Shown here in pieces: positions 8,713-59,721 of a stretch of 64,000 bases of DNA (positions are counted from its first letter, which is position 1; every line of letters begins with the position of its first letter). The notes beneath the pieces are model-generated. The model saw only the letters and a list, made by a program, of their open reading frames with translations. It had not been told where the DNA came from and searched no databases. Made by a program: the position numbers and the translations under genes. The DNA is from Escherichia coli (GTDB taxonomy: Bacteria > Pseudomonadota > Gammaproteobacteria > Enterobacterales > Enterobacteriaceae): assembly GCF_041886205.1 (NCBI RefSeq), contig NZ_CP169029.1, one strand, 5' to 3'.

Positions 8713-8797
8713 CCAGGCCTGATAAGACGCGTGATGCGTCGTATCAGGCATCGTTCACCATTGCCGGATGCGGCGTTAACGCCTTATCCGGCCTACG
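8713..8797. repeat. BIME: two REP elements between ypfH and ypfN
   Basis: gcctgataagacgcgtgatgcgtcgtatcaggc and gccggatgcggcgttaacgccttatccggcctac, both matching the REP consensus. Confidence 0.8.
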
Positions 8798-33447: not shown

Positions 33448-33731
<284 letters not shown>

Positions 33732-51217: not shown

Positions 51218-52234
51218 ATGGCCGTTAACTTACTGAAAAAGAACTCACTCGCGCTGGTCGCTTCTCTGCTGCTGGCGGGCCATGTACAGGCAACGGAACT
51301 GCTGAACAGTTCTTATGACGTCTCCCGCGAGCTGTTTGCCGCCCTGAACCCGCCGTTTGAACAGCAATGGGCCAAAGATAACGGCGGCGACAAACTGACG
51401 ATAAAACAATCTCATGCCGGGTCATCAAAACAGGCGCTGGCAATTTTGCAGGGCTTAAAAGCCGACGTTGTCACTTATAACCAGGTGACCGACGTACAAA
51501 TTCTGCACGACAAAGGCAAGCTTATCCCGGCTGACTGGCAGTCGCGCCTGCCGAATAATAGCTCGCCGTTCTACTCCACCATGGGCTTCCTGGTGCGTAA
51601 GGGCAACCCGAAGAATATCCACGACTGGAACGACCTGGTGCGCTCCGACGTGAAGCTGATTTTCCCGAACCCGAAAACGTCGGGTAACGCGCGTTACACC
51701 TATTTAGCCGCGTGGGGCGCAGCGGATAAAGCTGACGGTGGCGATAAAGCCAAAACCGAACAGTTTATGACTCAGTTCCTGAAAAACGTTGAAGTGTTCG
51801 ATACCGGCGGTCGTGGCGCGACCACCACTTTTGCCGAGCGCGGCCTGGGCGATGTGCTGATCAGCTTCGAGTCGGAAGTGAACAACATCCGTAAACAGTA
51901 TGAAGCGCAGGGCTTTGAAGTGGTGATTCCGAAAACCAACATTCTGGCGGAATTCCCGGTGGCGTGGGTCGATAAAAACGTGCAGGCCAATGGTACGGAA
52001 AAAGCAGCAAAAGCCTACCTGAACTGGCTCTACAGCCCGCAGGCGCAGACCATCATCACCGACTATTACTACCGCGTAAATAACCCGGAAGTCATGGACA
52101 AACTGAAAGATAAATTCCCGCAGACCGAACTGTTCCGCGTGGAAGACAAATTTGGCTCATGGCCGGAAGTGATGAAAACCCACTTCACCAGCGGCGGCGA
52201 GTTAGACAAGCTGTTAGCAGCGGGGCGTAAGTAA
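51218..52234 (+). CDS. cysP: Thiosulfate-binding periplasmic protein CysP
   Basis: 338 aa with signal peptide; recognised CysP. Confidence 0.92.
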
Positions 52235-53067
52235 TGTTTGCAGTTTCTTCAAGACGCGTGCTGCCGGGCTTTACTTTAAGCCTTGGCACCAGTCTGCTGT
52301 TTGTGTGCCTGATATTGCTGCTGCCGCTCTCTGCGCTGGTGATGCAGCTTTCTGAGATGAGCTGGGCGCAGTACTGGGAGGTGATCACCAACCCGCAGGT
52401 GGTCGCGGCCTACAAAGTGACGCTGCTGTCGGCGTTTGTGGCATCAATTTTTAACGGCGTTTTCGGCCTGCTGATGGCGTGGATTTTAACCCGTTATCGC
52501 TTTCCGGGCCGCACGCTGCTTGATGCGCTGATGGATTTACCCTTTGCGCTGCCAACGGCAGTCGCCGGTTTAACGCTGGCCTCGCTCTTTTCCGTGAACG
52601 GTTTTTACGGTGAATGGCTGGCGAAGTTTGATATCAAAGTCACCTATACCTGGCTTGGTATTGCGGTGGCGATGGCTTTTACCAGTATTCCGTTTGTGGT
52701 GCGTACCGTGCAGCCGGTGCTGGAAGAGTTAGGCCCGGAATATGAAGAAGCGGCAGAAACGCTTGGCGCAACGCGCTGGCAGAGTTTCTGCAAAGTGGTG
52801 CTGCCGGAACTTTCTCCGGCGCTGGTGGCGGGCGTGGCGCTGTCGTTTACCCGTAGTCTTGGTGAGTTTGGCGCGGTGATATTTATCGCCGGGAACATCG
52901 CCTGGAAGACGGAAGTGACGTCGCTGATGATTTTTGTGCGCTTGCAGGAGTTTGATTACCCGGCGGCGAGCGCGATTGCTTCGGTGATCCTCGCGGCATC
53001 ACTGCTGCTGCTGTTCTCAATTAACACTCTGCAAAGTCGCTTTGGTCGGCGTGTGGTAGGTCATTAA
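52234..53067 (+). CDS. cysU: Sulfate/thiosulfate ABC transporter permease CysU (CysT)
   Basis: 277 aa; start overlaps cysP stop by 1 nt. Confidence 0.92.
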   Translation: MFAVSSRRVLPGFTLSLGTSLLFVCLILLLPLSALVMQLSEMSWAQYWEVITNPQVVAAYKVTLLSAFVASIFNGVFGLLMAWILTRYRFPGRTLLDALMDLPFALPTAVAGLTLASLFSVNGFYGEWLAKFDIKVTYTWLGIAVAMAFTSIPFVVRTVQPVLEELGPEYEEAAETLGATRWQSFCKVVLPELSPALVAGVALSFTRSLGEFGAVIFIAGNIAWKTEVTSLMIFVRLQEFDYPAASAIASVILAASLLLLFSINTLQSRFGRRVVGH

Positions 53068-53942
53068 TGGCGGAAGTTACCCAATTGAAGCGTTATGACG
53101 CGCGCCCGATTAACTGGGGCAAATGGTTTCTGATTGGCACCGGGATGCTGGTTTCGGCGTTCATCCTGCTGGTGCCGATGATTTACATCTTCGTGCAGGC
53201 ATTCAGCAAGGGGCTGATGCCGGTTTTACAGAATCTGGCCGATCCGGACATGCTGCACGCCATCTGGCTGACGGTGATGATCGCGCTGATTGCCGTACCG
53301 GTAAACCTGGTGTTCGGCATTCTGCTGGCCTGGCTGGTGACGCGCTTTAACTTCCCTGGACGCCAGTTACTGCTGACGCTACTGGACATTCCGTTTGCCG
53401 TATCGCCGGTGGTTGCCGGTCTGGTGTATCTGCTGTTCTACGGCTCTAACGGCCCGCTGGGCGGCTGGCTGGATGAACATAATCTGCAAATTATGTTCTC
53501 CTGGCCCGGAATGGTGCTGGTCACCATCTTTGTGACGTGTCCGTTTGTGGTGCGCGAGCTGGTGCCGGTGATGTTAAGCCAGGGCAGCCAGGAAGACGAA
53601 GCGGCGATTTTGCTTGGCGCGTCTGGCTGGCAGATGTTCCGTCGCGTCACATTGCCGAATATTCGCTGGGCGCTGCTTTATGGCGTGGTGCTGACCAACG
53701 CCCGCGCGATTGGCGAGTTTGGTGCAGTGTCGGTGGTTTCCGGCTCGATTCGCGGCGAAACACTTTCGCTGCCGTTACAGATTGAATTGCTGGAGCAGGA
53801 CTACAACACCGTCGGCTCCTTTACCGCCGCCGCGCTGTTGACGCTGATGGCGATTATCACCCTGTTTTTAAAGAGTATGTTGCAGTGGCGCCTGGAGAAT
53901 CAGGAAAAACGCGCGCAGCAGGAGGAGCATCATGAGCATTGA
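53067..53942 (+). CDS. cysW: Sulfate/thiosulfate ABC transporter permease CysW
   Basis: 291 aa; start overlaps cysU stop by 1 nt. Confidence 0.92.
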
Positions 53943-55029
53943 GATTGCCAATATCAAGAAGTCTTTTGGTCGCACCCAGGTGCTGAATGATATCTCACTG
54001 GATATTCCTTCTGGTCAGATGGTCGCGCTGCTGGGGCCGTCCGGTTCCGGAAAAACCACGCTGCTGCGCATTATTGCCGGGCTGGAGCATCAAACCAGCG
54101 GGCATATTCGCTTCCACGGTACCGACGTGAGCCGCCTGCACGCACGCGATCGTAAAGTCGGTTTCGTGTTCCAGCATTACGCGCTGTTCCGTCATATGAC
54201 GGTGTTCGACAATATCGCTTTTGGCCTGACGGTGCTGCCACGTCGCGAGCGCCCGAATGCCGCAGCCATCAAAGCGAAAGTGACAAAATTGCTGGAGATG
54301 GTCCAGCTTGCCCATCTGGCGGATCGTTATCCGGCACAGCTTTCCGGCGGCCAGAAACAGCGCGTGGCGCTGGCGCGCGCGCTGGCTGTTGAACCGCAAA
54401 TTCTCCTGCTTGATGAACCGTTTGGCGCGCTGGATGCGCAGGTGCGTAAAGAGCTGCGTCGCTGGCTGCGTCAACTGCATGAAGAGCTGAAATTCACCAG
54501 CGTGTTCGTGACCCACGACCAGGAAGAAGCGACCGAAGTAGCTGATCGTGTAGTGGTGATGAGCCAGGGCAATATCGAGCAGGCTGATGCGCCGGACCAG
54601 GTATGGCGCGAACCAGCGACCCGATTTGTGCTCGAATTTATGGGCGAAGTGAACCGCCTGCAGGGAACCATTCGCGGCGGGCAGTTCCATGTTGGCGCAC
54701 ATCGCTGGCCGCTGGGGTATACGCCTGCGTATCAGGGGCCGGTGGATCTCTTCCTGCGCCCGTGGGAAGTGGATATCAGCCGCCGTACCAGTCTCGATTC
54801 GCCGCTGCCGGTACAGGTACTGGAAGCCAGCCCGAAAGGTCATTACACCCAATTAGTCGTGCAGCCGCTGGGGTGGTACAACGAACCGCTGACGGTTGTG
54901 ATGCATGGCGACGATGCCCCGCAGCGTGGCGAGCGTTTATTCGTTGGTCTGCAACATGCGCGGCTGTATAACGGCGACGAGCGTATCGAAACCCGCGATG
55001 AGGAACTTGCTCTCGCACAAAGCGCCTGA
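53932..55029 (+). CDS. cysA: Sulfate/thiosulfate ABC transporter ATP-binding protein CysA
   Basis: 365 aa; Walker [13 protein letters not shown] signature LSGGQKQR; overlaps cysW by 11 nt. Confidence 0.93.
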
Positions 55030-55050
55030 TAGGTTGAGTGAATGTTAAAC

Positions 55051-55086
55051 GCCCGGAGGCGCTTCCCGCGATCCGGGCTTTTTAAT
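55051..55086 (+). terminator. Terminator-like hairpin between cysA and cysM
   Basis: gcccgga-(14-nt loop)-tccgggc followed by TTTTTAAT. Confidence 0.5.
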
Positions 55087-55100
55087 GGCAAGGTTTGTAA

Positions 55101-55140
55101 CCTGTAGACCTGATAAGACGCGCAAGCGTCGCATCAGGCA
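55101..55140. repeat. REP element between cysA and cysM
   Basis: cctgtagacctgataagacgcgcaagcgtcgcatcaggca, REP-like palindrome. Confidence 0.7.
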
Positions 55141-55162
55141 ACACCACGTATGGATAGAGATC

Positions 55163-56074
55163 GTGAGTACATTAGAACAAACAATAGGCAATACGCCTCT
55201 GGTAAAGTTGCAGCGAATGGGGCCGAATAACGGCAGTGAAGTGTGGTTGAAACTGGAAGGCAATAACCCGGCAGGTTCGGTGAAAGATCGTGCGGCACTT
55301 TCGATGATCGTCGAGGCGGAAAAGCGCGGGGAAATTAAACCGGGTAATGTGTTAATCGAAGCCACCAGTGGTAACACCGGCATTGCGCTGGCAATGATTG
55401 CCGCGCTTAAAGGCTATCGCATGAAATTGCTGATGCCCGACAACATGAGCCAGGAACGCCGTGCGGCGATGCGTGCTTATGGTGCGGAACTGATTCTTGT
55501 CACCAAAGAGCAGGGCATGGAAGGTGCGCGCGATCTGGCGCTGGAGATGGCGAATCGTGGTGAAGGAAAGCTGCTCGATCAGTTCAATAATCCCGATAAC
55601 CCTTACGCCCATTACACCACCACCGGGCCGGAAATCTGGCAGCAGACTGGCGGGCGCATTACCCATTTTGTCTCCAGCATGGGAACAACCGGCACTATCA
55701 CCGGCGTGTCACGCTTTATGCGCGAACAATCCAAACCGGTGACCATTGTTGGCCTGCAGCCGGAAGAAGGCAGCAGTATTCCGGGCATTCGCCGCTGGCC
55801 TGCGGAATATCTGCCGGGGATTTTCAATGCTTCTCTGGTGGATGAGGTGCTGGATATTCATCAGCGCGATGCGGAAAACACCATGCGCGAACTGGCTGTG
55901 CGGGAAGGAATATTCTGTGGCGTCAGCTCCGGCGGCGCGGTTGCCGGAGCACTGCGGGTGGCAAAAGCTAACCCTGGTGCGGTGGTGGTAGCGATCATCT
56001 GCGATCGTGGCGATCGCTACCTTTCCACCGGGGTGTTTGGGGAAGAGCATTTTAGTCAGGGGGCGGGGATTTAA
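55163..56074 (+). CDS. cysM: Cysteine synthase B (O-acetylserine sulfhydrylase B)
   Basis: 303 aa from the GTG at 55163 (annotated N-terminus MSTLEQTIGNTPLVKL); PLP-lysine motif SVKDRAA; ORF track extends upstream into the REP region. Confidence 0.9.
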   Translation: MSTLEQTIGNTPLVKLQRMGPNNGSEVWLKLEGNNPAGSVKDRAALSMIVEAEKRGEIKPGNVLIEATSGNTGIALAMIAALKGYRMKLLMPDNMSQERRAAMRAYGAELILVTKEQGMEGARDLALEMANRGEGKLLDQFNNPDNPYAHYTTTGPEIWQQTGGRITHFVSSMGTTGTITGVSRFMREQSKPVTIVGLQPEEGSSIPGIRRWPAEYLPGIFNASLVDEVLDIHQRDAENTMRELAVREGIFCGVSSGGAVAGALRVAKANPGAVVVAIICDRGDRYLSTGVFGEEHFSQGAGI

Positions 56075-56076
56075 GA

Positions 56077-56445
56077 TTATTGCGCAGGCACTGTTTTATC
56101 CGTCTGCGCAATTAACGCATGTAAAAAAAGCTGTGCATTCTCATCGCTCTTACCGGGCATCTTCACGATATACGGCTTCCCGGTAATCGATGATGACGAA
56201 GCAACCTTGTCAATAAACTGCTCGGCAGTGTCAATGCGGTTACGGGTATTGCTGAGCTTCAGACGCAGGTGGGAAACCGCTTCATCGCAGGTATGTTCAT
56301 CGCCGTTGCGCACAAATATCAAATCCTTTTTCTGTGCTAATCCCTCCAGCATGGCGTTGATGCGGGCTTCTTCATGGGCAGTTAACTTCGCGTAAGCGGG
56401 GAGTGTCATTAGTAGTGTAATGACCAGACAAATGATTTTCTTCAT
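56077..56445 (-). CDS. yfeK: Uncharacterised secreted protein YfeK (DUF5329-like)
   Basis: 122 aa with signal peptide [19 protein letters not shown]; convergent with cysM, stops 2 bp apart. Confidence 0.8.
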
Positions 56446-56470
56446 TGAATTACCTTATCCTTGTTTTGTG

Positions 56471-56536
<66 letters not shown>

Positions 56537-56549
56537 GAGAAAAAATTAA

Positions 56550-57401
56550 ATGAGTAGTTTGTTGTTGTTTAACGATAAGAGCAGGGCACTGCAGGCGGAT
56601 ATCGTCGCCGTGCAGTCGCAGGTAGTGTACGGCAGCGTAGGCAACAGCATTGCCGTGCCTGCTATCAAACAGAACGGCCTGAATGTCTTTGCCGTGCCGA
56701 CGGTATTGCTGAGCAATACGCCGCATTATGACACTTTCTACGGTGGTGCGATTCCGGATGAATGGTTTAGCGGCTATTTGCGTGCACTTCAGGAGCGTGA
56801 TGCGCTGCGCCAACTTCGTGCTGTAACCACGGGCTATATGGGAACGGCATCGCAAATCAAAATCCTTGCCGAGTGGCTGACTGCGCTACGCAAAGACCAT
56901 CCTGACCTATTGATCATGGTCGATCCGGTGATTGGCGATATTGATAGCGGAATTTATGTCAAACCTGACCTTCCCGAGGCGTATCGACAATATTTACTGC
57001 CGCTGGCGCAGGGAATTACCCCCAATATCTTTGAGCTGGAAATCCTGACCGGTAAAAATTGCCGCGATCTCGACAGTGCCATTGCTGCCGCAAAAAGTCT
57101 GCTTTCAGACACATTAAAATGGGTGGTGATTACCAGCGCCTCCGGTAATGAAGAAAATCAGGAGATGCAGGTTGTGGTGGTCACTGCCGACAGCGTGAAT
57201 GTCATTTCCCATTCACGGGTAAAAACCGACCTGAAAGGGACTGGCGACCTGTTTTGTGCTCAGCTTATCAGTGGTTTGCTGAAAGGGAAGGCATTAAACG
57301 ATGCGGTGCACCGCGCGGGGTTGCGCGTACTGGAAGTGATGCGCTACACCCAGCAGCATGAGAGCGATGAATTGATTTTGCCGCTGCTGGCGGAAGCATA
57401 A
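56550..57401 (+). CDS. pdxK: Pyridoxal/pyridoxine/pyridoxamine kinase
   Basis: 283 aa ribokinase-fold protein; recognised PdxK. Confidence 0.92.
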
Positions 57402-57430
57402 AAAAATGGCGCCGATGGGCGCCATTTTTC
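57400..57430. terminator. Bidirectional rho-independent terminator (pdxK / crr)
   Basis: AAAAAAatggcgcc-gatg-ggcgccatTTTTT perfect stem flanked by A-run and T-run. Confidence 0.85.
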
Positions 57431-57443
57431 ACTGCGGCAAGAA

Positions 57444-57953
57444 TTACTTCTTGATGCGGATAACCGGGGTTTCACCCACAGTCACGCTACCGGACAGTTT
57501 GATCAGTTCTTTGATTTCGTCCATGTTGGAGATAACAACCGGAGTCAGGGTAGACTTGGCTTTCTCTTCCAGCAGCGGCAGATCAAATTCAATGACAGTA
57601 TCGCCAACTTTCACGCGCTGACCTTCTTCAGCAATACGCTTGAAGCCTTCGCCTTTCAGTTCAACGGTGTCGATACCGAAGTGGACGAACAGTTCAACGC
57701 CGCTATCAGATTCGATAGAGAATGCGTGGTTGGTTTCAAAGATTTTACCAATGGTGCCGTCTACAGGCGCGACCATTTTGTTACCCGTTGGTTTGATAGC
57801 AATACCATCACCAACGATTTTTTCCGCAAAAACGACATCCGGCACGTCTTCGATATTGACGATCTCGCCAGAGAGCGGAGCAATGATCTCAATAGTTCCG
57901 GTATCCTTCTTGTCGTCGGAAACCAGAGATTTCAGTTTATCGAACAAACCCAT
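57444..57953 (-). CDS. crr: PTS glucose-specific EIIA component
   Basis: 169 aa; recognised EIIA-Glc. Confidence 0.95.
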
Positions 57954-57993
57954 GATCTTCTCCTAAGCAGTAAATTGGGCCGCATCTCGTGGA

Positions 57994-59721
57994 TTAGCAG
58001 ATTGTTTTTTCTTCAATGAACTTGTTAACCAGCGTCATTAACTCGTCCGTTGTCGGTTGAGCAAGAGCCTGCTCTGCTAACACCTTCGCATCTTCGAAGT
58101 TCGTGTTACGGATAATCTTCTTAATGCGCGGGATAGAAATGGCGCTCATAGAGAATTCGTCCAGACCCATCCCCAGCAACAGAAGTGTAGCACGTTCATC
58201 GCCAGCAAGCTCACCACACATGCCAGTCCATTTGCCTTCAGCATGAGAAGCATCAATAACTTGCTTGATCAAGTTCAGCACGGACGGTGACATTGGCTGG
58301 TAAAGGTGTGAAATCATATCATTACCACGGTCAACTGCCAGAGTGTACTGCGTTAAATCATTGGTGCCGATACTAAAGAAATCAACTTCTTTGGCTAAAT
58401 GACGTGCAATTGTTGCGGCAGCCGGTGTTTCCACCATTACGCCGATTTCAATTGACTCGTCAAACGCTTTACCTTCGTCGCGCAGTTCCTGTTTGTAGAT
58501 TTCAATCTCTTTGCGCAGTGTACGCACTTCTTCAACAGAGATGATCATCGGGAACATAATGCGCAATTTACCGAAAGCCGAGGCACGCAGGATAGCGCGG
58601 AGCTGATCGCGCAGGATCTCTTTACGATCCATCGCGATACGGATAGCGCGCCAGCCGAGGAACGGGTTCTCTTCTTTCGGGAAGTTCATGTATGGCAGCT
58701 CTTTGTCGCCGCCGATGTCCATGGTACGAACGATAACCGCCTGCGAGCCACACGCTTCAGCCACTGCTTTGTAAGCAGCAAACTGTTCTTCTTCAGTGGG
58801 CAGCGCGTCGCGGTCCATGAACAGGAACTCAGTACGATACAGACCAACGCCTTCAGCGCCGTTACGCTCTGCACCTTCAACGTCACGAACCGTACCAATG
58901 TTAGCGCACACTTCTACCTGGTGACCGTCCAGCGTAATAGCTGGCAGATCTTTCAGTTTAGCAAGCTCTGCTTTTTCAGAAGCCACTTGCTCCTGAACAG
59001 CGCGCATTTTATCAATAACTTCGTTGGTTGGATTGACGTAAACCTGATTATTTACGGCATCCAGAATCAGATAGTCGTCATTTTTCACCTGAGAGGTGAC
59101 GCTACCGGTACCCACGATAGCAGGCAGTTCCAGAGAACGCGCCATGATAGAGGTGTGGGAAGTACGGCCACCCGCGTCGGTGATGAAACCCAGCACCTTC
59201 TTCAGGTTCAGCTGTGCGGTTTCGGACGGCGTCAGGTCAGCGGCAACCAGAATGACTTCATCCTGAATGGCGCTCAGGTCGATAATCTTCAGGCCCAGGA
59301 TGTTGCGCAGCAGGCGCTTACCGATATCACGTACGTCAGCCGCACGTTCTTTCAGGTATTCATCATCCAGCTCTTCCAGGGCAGAAGCCTGACCTTCGAT
59401 AACTTCATGAGCAGCTGCGTCAGCTGTCATGTGCTTATCTTTAATCAGGGCTATGATTTCCTGCTCCAGCTCCTCATCTTCGAGCAGCATAATATGCCCT
59501 TCAAAGATGGCTTCTTTTTCTTCACCGAACGTTTCACCAGCTTTCGTTTTGATCGTTTCCAGCTGGGCTGATGCCTTGGCACGACCGCTCAGAAAACGTT
59601 CAACTTCCTGATCAACCTGGTCGGCAGAAATTTTTTTCCGGTCAATGACAATTTCGTCTTCTTTCAGAAGCAGAGCTTTACCGAAAGCGATACCCGGGGA
59701 TGCTAAAATGCCTGAAATCAT
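57994..59721 (-). CDS. ptsI: PTS Enzyme I (phosphoenolpyruvate-protein phosphotransferase)
   Basis: 575 aa; recognised Enzyme I. Confidence 0.95.

Follow-up and report, generated by a model that had tools for sequence, protein, structure and literature searches.

A terminator-like hairpin, a REP element and a GTG-initiated cysM at the cysA-cysM junction of the Escherichia coli cysPUWAM operon

Several described systems bear comparison with the junction between cysA and cysM in Escherichia coli. In the E. coli rpsU-dnaG-rpoD operon, an operon-internal partial intrinsic terminator, T1, separates rpsU from dnaG, and MalH is a small RNA derived from the 3' end of malG. Intercistronic REP elements were reportedly described at malE-malF by Newbury et al. 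in 1987 and at hisJ-hisQ by Stern et al. in 1988, BIME-associated Rho-dependent attenuation is said to have been found by Espeli et al. in 2001, and Liang, Rudd and Deutscher are said to have shown in 2015 that a REP within about 15 nt of a stop codon can down-regulate translation.

Like rpsU-dnaG T1, the cysA-cysM junction places a hairpin and a U-tract between co-directional genes of one operon with lower output of the distal gene; the translation signals of this gene are poor, and the spacer contains no promoter for it. It differs from T1 in that termination here is a prediction from sequence, in that the hairpin appears to descend from a REP-like palindrome, and in the size of the deficit, about two-fold for CysM, whereas DnaG is reportedly far rarer than S21. 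As at malE-malF and hisJ-hisQ, a REP stem-loop occupies an untranslated stretch between genes of an operon for a binding-protein-dependent transporter, where it could shield the upstream mRNA from 3' exonucleases; unlike in those operons, it follows a terminator-like hairpin, is a single, lineage-specific unit, and precedes the gene for a biosynthetic enzyme, not genes for membrane components. The element belongs to the same repeat superfamily as BIMEs and naRNA4/REP325 (RF02564), matching half of the naRNA4 model, and departs from them in that the E. coli spacer has one REP unit. As in the cases ascribed to Liang et al. 2015, a stop codon precedes the REP, but the distance from that of cysA is 74 nt for the REP and 21 nt for the hairpin, outside the range of about 15 nt. 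On balance, we lean towards a leaky intrinsic terminator within the operon that acts together with weak initiation of cysM, with the REP as a later passenger.

The window, that is, the whole 64-kb stretch of E. coli DNA that we analyzed, contains the operon and the elements of the junction at the following positions:

51218-52234, cysP (RefSeq annotation of strains LHM10-1 and K-12 MG1655)
52234-53067, cysU/T (RefSeq annotation)
53067-53942, cysW (RefSeq annotation)
53932-55029, + strand, cysA (open reading frame and RefSeq annotation)
55027-55032, + strand, in-frame tandem stops TGA-TAG of cysA, with TGA at 55027-55029
55030-55162, + strand, cysA-cysM spacer, a 133-nt untranslated junction inside the cysPUWAM operon
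55051-55078, + strand, GC-rich hairpin folding into a 7-bp outer stem and a 3-bp inner helix
55079-55086, + strand, T-tract TTTTTAAT, starting at the base right after the stem
55085-55087, + strand, in-frame ATG upstream of cysM, inside the T-run region (from the list of open reading frames)
55104-55139, + strand, single Z2-type REP unit, consisting of GTAG (55104-55107) and an imperfect palindrome to 55139
55152-55160, + strand, weak Shine-Dalgarno-like stretch GGATAGAGA, identified from its anti-SD duplex
55163-56074, + strand, cysM (cysteine synthase B), GTG start, 303 codons (RefSeq annotation of LHM10-1 and K-12)

The original prediction had proposed a terminator-like GC stem followed by TTTTTAAT between cysA and cysM, a REP palindrome after the T-run, a GTG start for cysM and a weak ribosome-binding site. 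All four are present: the stem and T-run at 55051-55086, the REP at 55104-55139 as a significantly folded, multi-copy element (z = -5.3), the GTG in the RefSeq annotation, and a Shine-Dalgarno stretch among the weakest of the neighborhood. The spacer (55030-55162) is identical, base for base (100%), to positions 2539584-2539716 of K-12 MG1655, and the sequence has thus long been present in databases. With a 331-nt query spanning the site, identity was 100% for strain LHM10-1 and 96-99% for other E. coli. The second in-frame stop 3' of cysA recurs in 33 of 58 Enterobacterales loci.

Some features of the window concern its wider surroundings. Compared with its best-matching strain, LHM10-1 (NZ_CP037903.1), it shows offsets of -44 and +3 nt, with small indels upstream of about 45 kb. 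In the window strain, yfeS is absent, and 2 nt separate the cysM stop (56074) from the end of the convergent yfeK (56077; window 56072-56077), leaving no room for a terminator between them; in the K-12 equivalent, yfeS is present 3' of cysM with a 188-nt gap.

The outer stem of the hairpin is formed by GCCCGGA (55051-55057) pairing with TCCGGGC (55072-55078), with six G-C pairs, and begins 21 nt past the cysA stop. Two hallmarks of an intrinsic terminator, a GC-rich stem and a U-tract immediately 3' of it, are present; where a compact terminator hairpin has a loop of 3-8 nt, the outer arms here enclose 14 nt that are partly paired through the 3-bp inner helix. Folded alone, the hairpin reached -17.7 to -19.6 kcal/mol (z = -2.7), a stability equaled by 1 of 200 shuffles, and none of 60 shuffles of the spacer produced a hairpin of -10 kcal/mol or lower adjoining a T-run. 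We scanned both strands of the 64-kb window under one uniform rule, namely, a closed hairpin no longer than 33 nt that folds at -12 kcal/mol or lower and has five or more T in the next 8 nt, and found eight such sites, the most stable being that between cysA and cysM. Of the remaining seven, at least four mark the 3' end of a gene (bamC, yfeX, and the pdxK/crr site, counted on both strands), and a fifth is probably the site after acrD. Being the most stable of eight sites, the others of which are mostly located at gene 3' ends, the cysA-cysM hairpin with its T-run is terminator-like by sequence and looks like a genuine terminator. A consensus terminator scan with a loop of at most 8 nt reported no terminator at this hairpin, which it missed because of that loop limit.

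Taking the cysA-cysM spacers from the cysM loci of 80 species, we found a hairpin of -10 kcal/mol or lower with at least 4 T right behind it in 47 of the 58 spacers from Enterobacterales; dinucleotide shuffles, a control that ignores the shared ancestry of the loci, gave an expectation of 4.1. The stems fall into at least six unrelated sequence classes, including GCCCGG..., GCGGCC..., GGCAACC..., TGCTCATCTC... and CAGCCTGG...; across the order, the shape and the T-run are kept and the sequence is not, and this diversity of stems speaks against one inherited accident. The motif is missing from about 11 of the 58 spacers, mostly those of Pantoea, Erwinia and Mixta. Together with the non-ATG start of cysM described below, the conservation of the hairpin and T-run argues that these features are likely to be under selection.

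Within E. coli, the half of the spacer that holds the hairpin is single-copy, with a median of 1 place per genome, which rules out that the hairpin belongs to a repeat dispersed in E. coli, and it is present at 80% coverage or more in 5423 of 5426 genomes. The sole stem variant seen is a C-to-T change at 55078, which turns the closing G-C pair into G-U and the T-run into T6. In Citrobacter and Lelliottia, the spacer is about 67 nt long and reads stop, about 20 nt, GCCCGGTGGCGCTACGCTTACCGGGC, T5-6, 13-14 nt, GTG. In Enterobacter, Pluralibacter, Pseudescherichia and others, the same first hairpin, here with a CTAC tail, is followed by an inverted second copy preceded by GTAG; in spacers of the Enterobacter type, these REP-like palindromes form a pair, of which the second, inverted copy adjoins the T-run. 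The E. coli hairpin matches the other Enterobacteriaceae hairpins in its outer stem and in lying about 21 nt past the stop. Both partners of two stem pairs vary among 17 distinct versions of the Enterobacteriaceae hairpin: at pair 4, 10 versions have C-G and 7 have G-C, and at pair 7, the E. coli type has A-U where 10 others have U-A. Given these similarities, the E. coli hairpin can be read as an ortholog of an old REP-like palindrome that was kept beside a T-run.

Several loci depart from the common layout. E. coli AST205 (NZ_AP043614.1, locus L005, ~355-654) carries IS200C right after the TTTTT of the hairpin, at about window position 55084, which splits cysM from the operon. In the region 1-2433 of the Kluyvera (L017) and Enterobacteriaceae RIT691 (L027) loci, cysM is preceded by an ORF exceeding 800 codons that has no CysA match, and the order of stop, hairpin, T-run and GTG still follows this non-CysA ORF. 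In two Dickeya loci (L049 and L050) and in Rahnella inusitata (L036), cysM is not beside cysA, yet a terminator-like hairpin with a T-run lies closely upstream of it in the 220 nt examined; there, the hairpin comes from a different upstream gene, and the start of cysM is still GTG.

The element at 55104-55139 shows the features by which a REP is recognized: an imperfect palindrome of about 35 nt, a GTAG/CTAC end, an extragenic location and many dispersed copies. It begins 74 nt past the cysA TGA and stops 23 nt short of the GTG. Its fold reaches -20.0 kcal/mol (z = -5.3), a value that none of 200 shuffles equaled, and the element resembles a Z2-type unit at about 8716-8760 of the window. Queries containing it matched up to 18 megablast places per E. 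coli genome, with a median of 5. Against the Rfam naRNA4 model (RF02564), its score of 34.1 bits (E = 0.003) fell short of the gathering score of 59.5, and it aligned to model positions 44-76 only, that is, to one of the two REP units. The E. coli spacer holds this single REP and does not contain a BIME, defined by at least two inverted REPs with a linker. Full-length naRNA4 matches, which are REP pairs, occur elsewhere in the window at 8716-8793 (- strand), 33501-33582 (+) and 33601-33682 (+), two of them being tandem copies in the eutG-eutH gap of the eut operon. The NC_000913.3 annotation copy lists no REP in the spacer; it is REP-less even at malE-malF and hence uninformative on whether the spacer REP is catalogued.

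The distribution of the REP differs from that of the hairpin. It was detected in 5407 of 5426 E. coli genomes and is essentially fixed in the species; E. coli and E. albertii share it as some 65 nt inserted after the T-run and ahead of the ribosome-binding site. Citrobacter and Lelliottia have no REP after the T-run, and other REP arrangements are found elsewhere, with REP pairs at this position in loci L008, L009, L016, L020, L021, L023 and L024; true pairs at the site occur only in other genera, namely, Enterobacter, Pluralibacter and Pseudocitrobacter. In Pseudocitrobacter faecalis (L009, spacer ~1407-1565), a hairpin nearly identical to that of E. coli is accompanied by a Y+Z2 pair with Z2 in the opposite orientation, a difference from E. 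coli that, judged by sequence comparison, is REP turnover at one site. The Z2 REP is a later insertion in the Escherichia lineage and hence probably a passenger. Its inclusion in an attenuating design, as originally predicted, does not hold up given this restricted distribution and its absence from Citrobacter and Lelliottia.

Translation of cysM starts from poor signals. The anti-SD duplex of its Shine-Dalgarno-like stretch reaches -3.1 kcal/mol, placing cysM at rank 53 of 58 neighboring annotated genes, among the weakest, in a ranking computed on the sequence of strain LHM10-1 itself, and only 4 of these 58 genes, cysM included, start with GTG. At the homologous codon of 68 Enterobacterales loci, we found GTG in 65, TTG in 3 and ATG in none, and by comparison, cysA starts with ATG in 58 of 58 loci. 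Many Enterobacterales loci have an in-frame stop 6-12 nt upstream of the GTG or TTG, which excludes an alternative cysM start in those loci. Outside Enterobacterales (Pseudomonas, Vibrio, Oceanospirillales), cysM is not beside cysA, and in most loci, there is an in-frame ATG a few codons upstream, which is likely the start used there. The order-wide retention of a non-ATG codon suggests that selection has favored weak initiation of cysM.

We considered other ways to read the start region. The in-frame ATG at 55085, which would give a protein of 329 aa, has no Shine-Dalgarno and is not conserved, homology begins at the GTG, and in other E. coli strains, a +1 indel before the GTG breaks the frame; this candidate start was ruled out. 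The GTG at 55163 can be regarded on comparative grounds as a secure start, without recourse to proteomics, and the expected N-terminal peptide of CysM, with Met removed, would be STLEQTIGNTPLVK. A hairpin that might hide the start by pairing CACG (55145-55148) with CGUG (55162-55165) was not significant (z = -0.94). A 26-codon ORF (55150-55230) that overlaps the cysM start opens at 55150 with an out-of-frame ATG located 13 nt upstream of the GTG; it has no Shine-Dalgarno and is unconserved outside Escherichia-like loci.

The spacing of the elements bears on how cysM is transcribed. In most Enterobacteriaceae, 19-21 nt separate the end of the hairpin from the GTG, a gap in which a promoter cannot fit, so that cysM must be transcribed through the hairpin. 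In the window, a consensus scan found no sigma-70-like site on the + strand between 51559 and 58000, a range that includes cysA and the spacer. A cysM promoter in the spacer or the 3' end of cysA was accordingly discarded, there being no consensus match and the -10-like hexamers, inspected by eye, lacking the key A2 or T6. These features point to a cysM that would have no promoter of its own and would rely on read-through.

Published expression data allow the output of the genes to be compared. In the absolute proteome mass fractions of Mori 2021 (PMC8144880, Dataset EV9), which are anchored on ribosome-profiling synthesis rates, CysA accounts for 0.00061-0.00104, CysP for 0.00060-0.00075, CysM for 0.00025-0.00035 and CysK for 0.004-0.0065. 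Divided by molecular mass, these values put CysM, at the protein level, at about 0.4-0.7 of CysA on a molar basis, that is, about 1.5-2.6-fold below it, and at about 0.5 of CysP. The attenuation of CysM is thus modest, about two-fold, and with a GTG and a weak Shine-Dalgarno also at work, so small a deficit leaves little room for efficient termination. The proposal that the junction lowers cysM relative to the transporter genes therefore stands in part: the hairpin with its T-run and the non-ATG start are conserved and CysM is less abundant than CysA and CysP, but the deficit is only about 1.5-2.6-fold.

Two reports at the transcript level disagree in direction. In RNA-seq after H2O2 (PMC9026346), cysM rises together with other cys genes of the CysB regulon, which fits read-through and is silent on attenuation. 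A report on an APEC lsrR mutant (PMC13393413) gives cysUWA as up about 9-fold with cysM unchanged; there, cysP is unchanged too, an odd result given that the operon begins with cysP. The 3'-end and transcript-mapping data of Adams 2021, SMRT-Cappable-seq, TRS and TERMITe contained no entry for cysA or cysM.

Four other explanations have to be weighed against a leaky terminator combined with weak initiation. The main rival, which we consider doubtful although it deserves to be taken seriously, is that the hairpin brings about no useful termination, being a REP relic or an element of RNA stability or processing, and that low CysM results from translation alone. A shortfall of only about two-fold might indeed be accounted for by a GTG and a Shine-Dalgarno ranked 53 of 58, and the hairpin is related to REP-like palindromes, has a long apical region and was missed by the consensus scan; moreover, Erwiniaceae lack the hairpin yet have kept the GTG. 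What such an account leaves unexplained is the T-run, which a stability hairpin does not need and which is kept right behind the stem in 47 of 58 loci, those with unrelated stems included, as well as the resemblance of the site to the operon-end terminators of the window under the same criterion. This equivalence to operon-end terminators could also be taken further, to the view that the hairpin is an efficient terminator of a cysPUWA operon and that cysM is expressed from its own promoter, as would befit the flat cysM beside a roughly 9-fold change of cysUWA in the APEC lsrR mutant (PMC13393413). Of all the alternatives, we give this one the least credence: the scan of the + strand from 51559 to 58000 yielded no sigma-70-like site, the gap of 19-21 nt between hairpin and GTG in most relatives is too short, a promoter inside cysA would still meet the hairpin, cysM rises with the CysB regulon (PMC9026346), and CysM is comparable in abundance to CysA and CysP.

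The remaining two explanations assign the regulation to the REP or to a more elaborate module. That the REP is the main regulator, by stabilizing the upstream mRNA, by Rho-dependent attenuation or by blocking access of ribosomes to cysM, appears improbable to us. It is a stable stem-loop (-20 kcal/mol) ending 23 nt before the GTG and is fixed in E. coli (5407 of 5426 genomes), and the REPs of malE-malF and hisJ-hisQ are said to set differential expression in ABC-transporter operons. Against this, the element is lineage-specific, with none after the T-run in Citrobacter and Lelliottia and a different Y+Z2 pair in another orientation in Pseudocitrobacter; it is a single REP and not a BIME; at 74 nt from the cysA stop, it lies far outside the 15-nt range reportedly associated with effects on translation termination; and the terminator hairpin upstream already supplies a protective 3' structure. 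More remote still is the idea that the hairpin, U-tract and GTG form a tunable attenuator responsive to sulfur status, which would set the ratio of CysM, the enzyme of the thiosulfate branch, to the transporter through read-through or through the stability of the terminated RNA, or that the 3' end of cysA gives rise to an Hfq-binding 3'-UTR sRNA like MalH. The leaky terminator that we favor faces difficulties of its own: a 14-nt apical region with a small inner helix is atypical of strong terminators, and the consensus scan is silent; the deficit is only about 1.5-2.6-fold; about 11 of 58 spacers are without the motif; and the shuffle controls take no account of common descent.

Building on the observed anatomy, conservation and start codon, the lack of a promoter-like site and the lower abundance of CysM, we propose the following course of events, in which termination at the U-tract and the share of each step are what we infer. 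The hairpin and U-tract would act as a leaky intrinsic terminator, such that some transcripts from the cysP promoter end at the U-tract and yield a cysPUWA mRNA with a protective 3' hairpin, and the remaining transcripts read through and carry cysM. The latter would then be translated from a poor initiation region, with its GTG and weak Shine-Dalgarno, and termination and weak initiation together would render CysM somewhat rarer than the transporter proteins. The Z2 REP is most likely a passenger, and any influence it has on RNA stability would be secondary.

Each element of the junction is of a well-known kind, the GTG start is already in the reference annotation, and parts of the arrangement may have been noted already in the original 1990 description of the gene cluster. 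The comparison across loci adds four points: the hairpin with its T-run is old and conserved, the hairpin can be read as REP-like in origin, the REP insertion is young, and cysM starts with a non-ATG codon throughout the order. The current picture of operon regulation is unchanged, and the junction is a tidy, ordinary case. If the leaky terminator is real, one promoter would yield unequal amounts of the sulfate/thiosulfate transporter and of cysteine synthase B, and changes to the hairpin, the U-tract or the start codon (GTG to ATG) would offer a handle for engineering thiosulfate-based cysteine production. Beyond E. coli, the order-wide non-ATG start of cysM may serve as a clean, small case of selection on a weak start codon, and the site would illustrate how a REP-like palindrome beside a T-run can persist in the role of a terminator amid the turnover of neighboring REPs.
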